DNA from: Candidatus Latescibacterota bacterium
Lineage (GTDB): Bacteria; Latescibacterota; UBA2968; UBA8231
Length of the DNA: 64,000 nt
Direction: 5' to 3'
Assembly (NCBI GenBank): GCA_965248265.1
Contig: CBDFJF010000002.1
Location: forward strand, 64,001 to 128,000
The notes below the pieces were generated by a model. That model was not told the origin of the DNA and did no database searches. It saw only the letters and a list, made by a program, of their open reading frames with translations. A program made the translations under genes and the position numbers. This document shows, in pieces, positions 2,514-2,757 of this stretch. Positions within the stretch are counted from its first letter, which is position 1; every line of letters starts with the position of its first letter.

Positions 2514-2757
2514 GCTGGTCGACAAGCGGCCAGCCCCGGGCGATTACGCCAATCGGCTGACTTTCGTCTCAGAAGGCGTCCGCAGGACGCTTTTCGCTGC
2601 GTCGGCCTTACCATTGTGCACGAGCAAGCCTCCTGGTACGCCGACCCGAGGGTCGGTGAGGAGGCATTCTGGCTCGATGCTTGAAAGAAAGGAGGTGGTC
2701 TGTGAGCAGTAGTATACCATTAAGGGGGTCGGCCACCTGACCTGAGCTTCGACCAGC
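2514..2757 (+). ncRNA. Putative structured RNA or 5' leader of unrecognised family
   Basis: Closing stem GCTGGTCG(AC)AAGC 2514-2527 with GCTTCGACCAGC 2746-2757; internal hairpins at 2531-2559, 2573-2593, 2628-2665 and 2693-2738. Confidence 0.55.
2702..2740 (+). CDS. Putative 12-aa micro-ORF/leader peptide MSSSIPLRGSAT
   Basis: GTG start 5 nt after AGGAGGT within an extended SD (AGAAAGGAGGTGGTC, 2686-2700); TGA at 2738-2740. Confidence 0.4.
   Translation: MSSSIPLRGSAT

Follow-up and report, generated by a model that had tools for sequence, protein, structure and literature searches.

We analysed a 64,000-nucleotide (nt) stretch of DNA from a Candidatus Latescibacterota bacterium (contig CBDFJF010000002.1, positions 64,001 to 128,000; hereafter the window) and found, in one of its intergenic regions, a member of a previously undescribed family of small RNAs (sRNAs) that is of a broadly known kind. 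Positions 2477-2770 are a 3'-truncated copy of a lineage-specific sRNA gene, present once per genome. We give about even credence to a reading in which the RNA is a conformational switch, operated by translation, that limits or reports its own translation. Such a switch would be built around a micro-open reading frame (micro-ORF) that is framed by a long Shine-Dalgarno (SD) sequence and by mimics of the 16S rRNA 3' end. No description of this RNA was found in full-text searches of the literature (as judged from titles and the openings of abstracts, with supplements outside the searches).

The RNA family and the copy in the window

When positions 2440-2800 were compared by BLAST with 40 relatives, the sole part to match was 2684-2749, which was found in seven genomes from six other genera at 81-91% identity; conservation clearly takes the element far beyond chance. 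The family comprises 76 genomes, in 16 of which a pattern search recovered the core. A covariance model built on that core gave one strong match per genome in 69 of the 76, reaching 17 of 18 genera and all 12 of the high-quality genomes. Applied to 56 genomes from other families of the same class, the model matched 0 of 31 (f2), 0 of 3 (f3) and 1 of 22 (f4), the single match being weak; under stricter filters, a sample of the phylum gave matches in 57 of 63 genomes of f1 and in 0 of 87 genomes from 13 other families. All public records that match the element are metagenome-assembled genomes. Unless stated otherwise, the counts of copies below refer to 70 copies, from the 69 family genomes and from one genome of a sister family.

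Among the relatives the element is a stand-alone RNA, about 300-350 nt long, that has a promoter and a terminator of its own; its parts follow in the order promoter, 5' domain, conserved core, variable hairpin (absent in some copies) and terminator. The promoter, TTGAC(T/C/G)-17/18-TA.A.T, was located by a strict regular expression in 38 of 69 copies, each time at the same relative position. It is followed by a 5' domain of 100-190 nt, variable in sequence, with covarying hairpins (among them the 5' hairpin at alignment columns 40-64), and a GC-rich terminator with a U run is found about 140-168 nt after the SD. The sole strongly conserved part of the RNA is the module that would engage ribosomes. 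Flanking genes vary from genus to genus, and convergent ones are frequent; among them are oxidoreductases, an epimerase, a response regulator-cyclase, a solute-binding protein and a diaminopimelate epimerase, and no conserved gene neighbourhood that might serve as a clue to function was found across the genera compared. The parts of the window's copy are as follows.

2477..2506, + strand: sigma-70-type promoter, TTGACG-18-TATATT (10 of 12 matches; shuffles expect 0.2)
2513..2686, + strand: 5' domain of the RNA, about 175 nt, structured, with a sequence that differs between genera (alignments; the whole leader folds with z = -2.0)
2687..2700, + strand: SD1, GAAAGGAGGTGGTC, 14 nt, complementary to the 16S tail; its 3' eight bases are termed A1
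2702..2740, + strand: micro-ORF, GTG...TGA, 12 codons (MSSSIPLRGSAT), with the TGA at 2738-2740
2722..2729, + strand: SD2, an internal SD-like element 9-10 nt upstream of the stop codon, AAGGGGGT in the window and GGAGG(T) in relatives
2731..2738, + strand: B1, GGCCACCT, the final codons and first stop base, resembling the 16S 3' end; complementary to SD1 and, in relatives, to A2
2752..2770, + strand: remnant of the A2:B2 hairpin (ACCAG, CACC) with the deletion junction (alignment to locus L195)

The promoter predicts an RNA start near 2513. The initial annotation of this locus had described a GTG start, twelve codons and a TGA, with an ORF end and stop able to pair with the SD; the reading frame is present exactly as written, and AGGTGGTC (2693-2700) is indeed complementary to GGCCACCT (2731-2738) over eight pairs that include a single G.U.

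Short elements of the SD or anti-SD type recur, and there are five of them: SD1, SD2, A2, B1 and B2. The 16S rRNA of the window's genome ends in ...GGAUCACCUCCUUUCU, the anti-SD core of which is shared by the 30S subunit of E. coli, and SD1 is complementary to this end over 14 nt with one G.U pair; the SD1 motif is invariant in 69 of 70 copies, the remaining copy (L114) having GGAAGG. This genome uses SDs in its genes, and the GGAG of SD1 lies 11 nt before the start, the modal spacing among those genes (GGAG peak at -11). The other complements of at least 14 nt to the 16S tail that were inspected in the genome all lie inside coding regions; two near-identical coding stretches 3.7 kb apart, apparently tandem paralogous genes (G000 C2:1368051 and C2:1371795), each hold a 15-nt complement that includes G.U pairs. 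A conserved 16S motif has one match in the 7.3-Mb assembly, near 2.58 Mb on the minus strand of G000 C1; either the genome has a single rRNA operon, as this suggests, or the assembly has collapsed several. Of the mimics, B1 resembles GAUCACCU of 16S, B2 (CCACCUGG) is a downstream anti-SD mimic, and A2 is a downstream AGGUG(G/A)UC element. SD2 is conserved as nucleotides at differing positions in the frame, and the substitutions seen in the window's SD2 (GGGGG) and B1 (GGCC) are common to its close relatives.

Contigs from RNA libraries hint at a discrete, abundant small RNA. In three marine metatranscriptome runs, from three studies, contigs of 215-229 nt match 2593-2750 with one or two differences and continue into an intact A2:B2; the same three runs leave 2300-2503 and 2776-3300 uncovered, a lack of cover that is not evidence of absence. 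Further RNA-library contigs (152-256 nt) represent other family members, including an in-frame variant 3 nt shorter (at 2705; runs X12 and X13) with an 11-codon ORF that is also found in L174, L194 and G042. Run X1, in which the whole stretch is present, also contains the core of three or more further organisms (records 2, 5 and 6, the loose ends of which show an intact A2:B2), so that its sample is a community with several members of the family.

Reading frame, peptide and helices

Each of the 70 copies has a start and, in frame with it, a stop. Loss of start, stop and frame in homologs had been named beforehand as refuting the ORF, and that refutation fails. Start codons are TTG in 51 copies, GTG in 13 and ATG in 6, and stop codons are TGA in 64, TAA in 4 and TAG in 2; in every copy the start lies 4-9 nt past the SD and the stop overlaps the CACCU motif. 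The length of the ORF varies, with 9, 10, 11, 12 or 13 codons and nine classes of architecture. Read against the genus table, the ORF has undergone at least seven independent changes of length, every one a multiple of three, whereas the linker behind the stop takes 14 lengths that spread over all residues modulo 3. Genus g13 has lost the TTG and gained 1 nt in the RNA, but is back in frame through an ATG placed four bases further downstream; L125, read by eye, has an 11-codon ATG frame. Annotation almost never includes conserved ORFs as short as about ten codons, and selection on them has rarely been shown. Here the signature of a kept frame is unusually clean on comparative data alone, in a lineage that is largely uncultured.

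The peptide fares differently from the frame. The amino acids vary, and what persists is nucleotide sequence, namely the GGAGG inside the ORF and the CACCU at its end: residues 8-9 are GG, RR or GR, depending on the register of GGAGG in the frame, and residues 4-5 are hypervariable inside a single genus (NC, NR, KR, TS, PS). Of the 11 sense codons that follow the start, six are rare in the window's genome (AGT, AGT, ATA, CCA, TTA, AGG), and the rare AGT, ATA and TTA codons persist in GC-rich genomes, which argues for a constraint at the nucleotide level. With a poorly conserved peptide in a kept frame, it is translation that would be selected and not its product. We conclude from this pattern of conservation that the targets of selection are probably the act of translation and the nucleotide motifs, and not the peptide; an ORF that the ribosome must translate in order to melt a structure appears well supported by the alignments.

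The serine codons do swap families (AGT to TCA or TCT) and leucine TTG changes to CTG, and these synonymous changes, together with the presence of the ORF in all 70 copies, an N-terminus of M-S-S in most of them and the very strong SD, speak for a very small protein-coding gene, in which the 9-13-residue peptide would be functional and the SD, helices and terminator would serve high and stable expression. We consider such a gene unlikely, given that the peptide is poorly conserved just where the RNA motif is kept, that its length ranges from 9 to 13 residues, that rare codons are retained in GC-rich genomes, and that no processing or partner gene is conserved nearby. The small functional peptide that the initial annotation had offered as one possibility is accordingly disfavoured, its residues 8-9 following the register of GGAGG.

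Base pairing was counted over 59 distinct sequences in alignment A5. The helix between the 3' end of the ORF and downstream A2 (B1:A2, 11 pairs) is shown by covariation: 96.7% of cells are paired, four of the 11 pairs have changed on both sides, and 54 cells carry double changes, compared with 10.4 +/- 2.8 in shuffles (0 of 500 shuffles reach the observed value) and with at most 49% of cells paired in slid controls. Four other pairings, each involving an almost invariant strand, are also kept in most cells, namely SD1:B1, the hairpin of the initial annotation (98.3% of cells), SD1:B2 (98.6%), A2:B2 (91.1%) and SD2:B2 (91.2%). The CACCU and AGGUG cores are fixed while the flanks of the same helix vary, which argues that the cores must fit several partners and ultimately the SD, itself fixed by the rRNA. 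By predicted energy, B1:A2 with SD2:B2 and a free SD1 is the lowest form in most copies; the two-hairpin form (SD1:B1 with A2:B2) and the nested form (SD1:B2 with B1:A2) are 1.8-9 kcal/mol higher, and RNAalifold on A5 returns the nested form. Occlusion of SD1 by B1 is, in these models, a possible alternative conformer. The proposal that a ribosome on this ORF would melt a helix therefore needs amending: the 3' end of the ORF is paired, as had been noted, but the partner backed by covariation is A2 and not the SD.

We infer the following cycle for the switch. In the ground state SD1 would be open, and the last four or five codons of the ORF would be locked in B1:A2. A ribosome would load via the 14-bp duplex, read slow codons, meet SD2 at an initiation-like spacing from the stop, and melt B1:A2, freeing A2 and B2; after termination B1 or B2 could capture SD1, giving a closed state that would last until the RNA refolds. 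The output might be the stability and so the lifetime of the RNA, its occupancy by ribosomes that are held on it, or an interaction of A2 and B2 with a target in trans. The interweaving of SD, SD2 and anti-SD mimics suggests that the ribosome itself is the ligand of this RNA switch. In that case the RNA would be a candidate for a new Rfam family and a natural, compact sensor of translational capacity. A translation-sensing switch was among the suggestions of the initial annotation and was right in spirit, the ORF being interlocked with the SD; the leader context in which it was placed and its main pairing partner were wrong.

Several points weigh against the switch. Translation of the micro-ORF is deduced from its conservation, and no output domain or target has been identified for the RNA. 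The 5' domain is poorly conserved. The genomes are related, so that the shuffle controls overstate significance, and the helices that would occlude the SD lie beyond covariation testing because SD1, the CACCU cores and the AGGUG of A2 are nearly invariant. By thermodynamics alone the stability of the window's hairpin is ordinary and at chance level (66 nt, -15.9 kcal/mol, compared with -16.2 +/- 2.6 in shuffles; z = 0.12), and the hairpin is absent from both the minimum free energy and the centroid fold of the whole leader. The variation among stop codons is weak evidence by itself, since it partly tracks a small covarying hairpin and since three of the four T-R-R triplets are stops. Lastly, the RNA-library contigs show neither ends nor strand nor level, and could derive from DNA.

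Much of the same evidence could be read as an RNA that captures ribosomes or 30S subunits, in which the duplex, the rare codons, SD2 and the helix hold ribosomes, the RNA buffers the free pool or shields 16S 3' ends, and the ORF lets the ribosomes leave. The SD is much longer than initiation needs and almost invariant, rare codons make up six of the 11 sense codons past the start, and SD2, 9-10 nt ahead of the stop, has a spacing to the P site like that of initiation. The promoter is close to the consensus, and nothing but the ribosome-engaging module is conserved. There is, however, one copy per genome, the module is not repeated as it is in known sponge RNAs, and the argument proceeds by inference alone; we regard this explanation as distinctly improbable.

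A scan of metagenomes revealed a second clade, on 13 contigs (L140, L155, L156, L159, L163, L176, L177, L178, L183, L193, L196, L201 and L204), with the same design and with an unrelated 5' domain and 3' arms. Its members share the 14-nt SD and have an ORF of 10-14 codons that starts with GTG or ATG, an internal SD-like element, a stop within CACCU(G/A)A and a promoter-like box, and a terminator is visible in several; examples of the peptides are MIYVCICQGGGRT, MDYFCISQRGGIT and MCSGNQRWLT. In one fold of L196 the SD pairs with a far-downstream CCACCACCUC. Across the phylum, the exact design pattern occurs in 29 of 75 genomes of f1 and in 0 of 92 from the other families searched. Given a second clade of the same design, that design may be widespread and may have arisen or diversified repeatedly. 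It is conceivable, if quite unlikely, that these RNAs represent a new class of ribosome-operated sRNAs, each a miniature mRNA (a 14-nt SD, an arbitrary ORF of 9-14 codons, an internal SD and one or two anti-SD copies) that senses or buffers free, initiation-competent ribosomes or protects 16S 3' ends.

The deletion in the window and the downstream gene

The genes that border the element, and the intergenic region that holds it, are as follows.

1396-2358: gene for a Phenol_MetA_deg outer-membrane protein, bordering the intergenic region on its upstream side
2359-2776: intergenic region containing the element, between the Phenol_MetA_deg gene and the 525-residue ORF
2777..4354, + strand: ORF of 525 amino acids (aa), with no Pfam family, 36 nt behind the micro-ORF stop and in the same frame

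In contigs of close relatives the RNA, complete with A2:B2, variable hairpin and terminator, is followed by a spacer of about 70 nt and then by the ortholog of the 525-aa gene. The closest of these, L195, shares 95% identity with the window in the RNA and 86% in the 525-aa gene, and its alignment to the window has gaps of 9+118+4+5 nt between 2756 and 2770. About 136 nt are missing from the window: A2, B2, the variable hairpin, the terminator and the spacer. This missing 3' part was found nowhere else in the window or the genome. An insertion that split the RNA was rejected for that reason, and because the alignment to L195 shows a deletion. Record 7 of run X1 is identical to the window over 2721-3300, although this run and the assembly probably come from one sample.

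As a consequence of the deletion, the element sits here in the 5' leader of the 525-aa gene, and the micro-ORF is now an upstream ORF; no terminator was found between the two in the window. With A2 and B2 lost, B1 of the window can pair only with SD1 or locally, and the SD:ORF-end hairpin of the initial annotation may form by default in this genome. From 2702 to 4354 nothing but the TGA at 2738-2740 and 12 open codons separates the micro-ORF from the 525-aa ORF, so that read-through would fuse them; their shared frame may be a coincidence, the chance of which is one in three. The window shows how a small deletion can convert a stand-alone sRNA into the 5' leader of a neighbouring gene with an upstream ORF, and it is plausible that leader peptides arise by this route.

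The reading that the initial annotation had favoured, a cis-acting leader peptide or attenuator for the 525-aa gene, draws on the window's having no terminator between the ORF and the ATG at 2777, on the gene's having no SD of its own, and on the presence of its orthologs downstream, on the same strand, in several genera (directly behind the RNA in the nearest relatives). The window's fusion is nevertheless the result of the deletion of about 136 nt; a full terminator intervenes in the nearest relatives (L195, L160 and L174), the next gene is convergent or unrelated in other genera, A2:B2 has no U run, and the ORF has no runs of regulatory codons. We therefore consider a leader function very unlikely. 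The placement in a leader does not extend to the relatives, in which the element stands alone.

Four other genera also have orthologs of the 525-aa gene, or fragments of it, on the strand of the RNA and 1.6-36 kb downstream of it. The protein had no Pfam or PADLOC match, and a match to an extracytoplasmic function (ECF) sigma factor was below threshold. Its family is multi-copy, with five matches in this genome (the loci listed being window 2777-4354 and G000 C2:3554229, C2:988612 and C2:3269526) and several in most relatives; one family member is syntenic with the RNA in five genera. Further along the window, on the minus strand, are a type II DNA methyltransferase gene at 5250-6125 (PADLOC MTase_II, 8e-100; Pfam N6_N4_Mtase) and, next to it, a gamma-glutamyltranspeptidase gene at 6153-7883.

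Known RNA systems

We compared the element with RNAs of known type. Neither window positions 2000-3200 nor seven full-length relatives matched a family in Rfam release 15 beyond chance-level or terminator-like similarity, the best match being CC2171 at 25 bits against a cut-off of 75. Transfer-messenger RNA (tmRNA) has a tRNA-like acceptor/T-arm domain and a resume codon without an SD. The RNA described here resembles it in being about 350 nt long, in occurring once per genome and in having a short ORF with a stop; it differs in having an SD, a start codon and a terminator instead of the tRNA-like domain. tmRNA was rejected: ARAGORN found 0 genes here, and the genuine tmRNA lies at C2:171541-171893 (209 bits). 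RNase P RNA was likewise rejected, since it lies elsewhere in the genome. 6S RNA is a rod of about 180 nt with a central bubble; the RNA here is longer, has several hairpins and carries a conserved ORF, a poor fit by description, and the 6S model RF00013 has no match anywhere in the genome.

Other candidates were set aside on particular features. A sponge of the CsrA/Rsm type (GGA motifs) was rejected by eye, there being only two such motifs per RNA. A frameshift of the prfB/dnaX type at SD2 and the stop was rejected because no slippery site is found, some copies end in a stop other than UGA, and the +1 frame is unconserved (by eye; it closes early in L008). Peptides of the microcin C (mccA) type have a C-terminal Asn and an adjacent mccB-like adenylyltransferase gene; such a gene was rejected here because the peptides end in T, A or S and have no conserved neighbour.

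The leaders trpL, thrL and ermCL act by ribosome-dependent attenuation. As in these, a short ORF overlaps one strand of mutually exclusive 1:2, 2:3 and 3:4 helices, and a ribosome decides among them. Here, unlike there, segment 1 is the SD of the ORF itself, the 3:4 helix is neither a terminator nor SD-hiding, there are no runs of regulatory codons, and 69 of 70 copies have no regulated gene downstream. A transcription attenuator was rejected: A2:B2 is without a U run, the terminator being a separate hairpin 30-60 nt further on; no conserved same-strand operon lies downstream, the co-oriented gene of the window being due to the deletion; and there are no tandem regulatory codons, with Ser-Ser at positions 2-3 in most copies and variable central codons.

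Two kinds of system relate to the pairing of the SD. STAB-SD of cryIIIA is an SD-like 5' stabiliser, whose core we take to be GAAAGGAGG, the same core as in SD1. The hbs mRNA of Bacillus subtilis is also reported to have an SD-like stabiliser at its 5' end (PMC5737220). The RNA resembles both in its extended complementarity to the 16S 3' end, and ribosome binding may protect it; it differs in that the SD lies 140-190 nt from the predicted 5' end, is followed at optimal spacing by a conserved start and an ORF, and can be closed by anti-SD mimics. In the icaR mRNA of Staphylococcus aureus, the 3' and 5' untranslated regions (UTRs) are reported to engage in anti-SD pairing within the transcript (PMC3868564). 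Here too a downstream anti-SD-like motif of the same transcript can pair with the SD; icaR is the mRNA of a regulator protein, whereas here we have a tiny ORF on a small RNA with two mimics.

SgrS/SgrT, RNAIII/hld and SR1/SR1P are dual-function sRNAs with a translated small ORF. The element has in common with them an independent transcript, its own promoter and intrinsic terminator, and a short conserved ORF; the relatives' copies are independent units, and the window's copy keeps the promoter and has lost the terminator. The ORF here is shorter (9-13 codons), its peptide is unconserved, and what is conserved instead is the module of SD, ORF and anti-SD mimics. The pair rnTrpL/peTrpL is reported as another such RNA with a translated small ORF (PMC6614838, PMC7298713). 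No obvious exposed base-pairing seed was found beyond the SD and anti-SD motifs, with no target prediction made. A purely non-coding structured sRNA, with an SD-like seed, a helix and, between them, a conserved loop that happens to read as an ORF, has nucleotide motifs as its most conserved stretches and the Rho-independent terminator and hairpins typical of base-pairing sRNAs on its side, and retains only a slight probability, since frame, start and stop survive at least seven length changes and one relocation of the start while the length of the linker is free.
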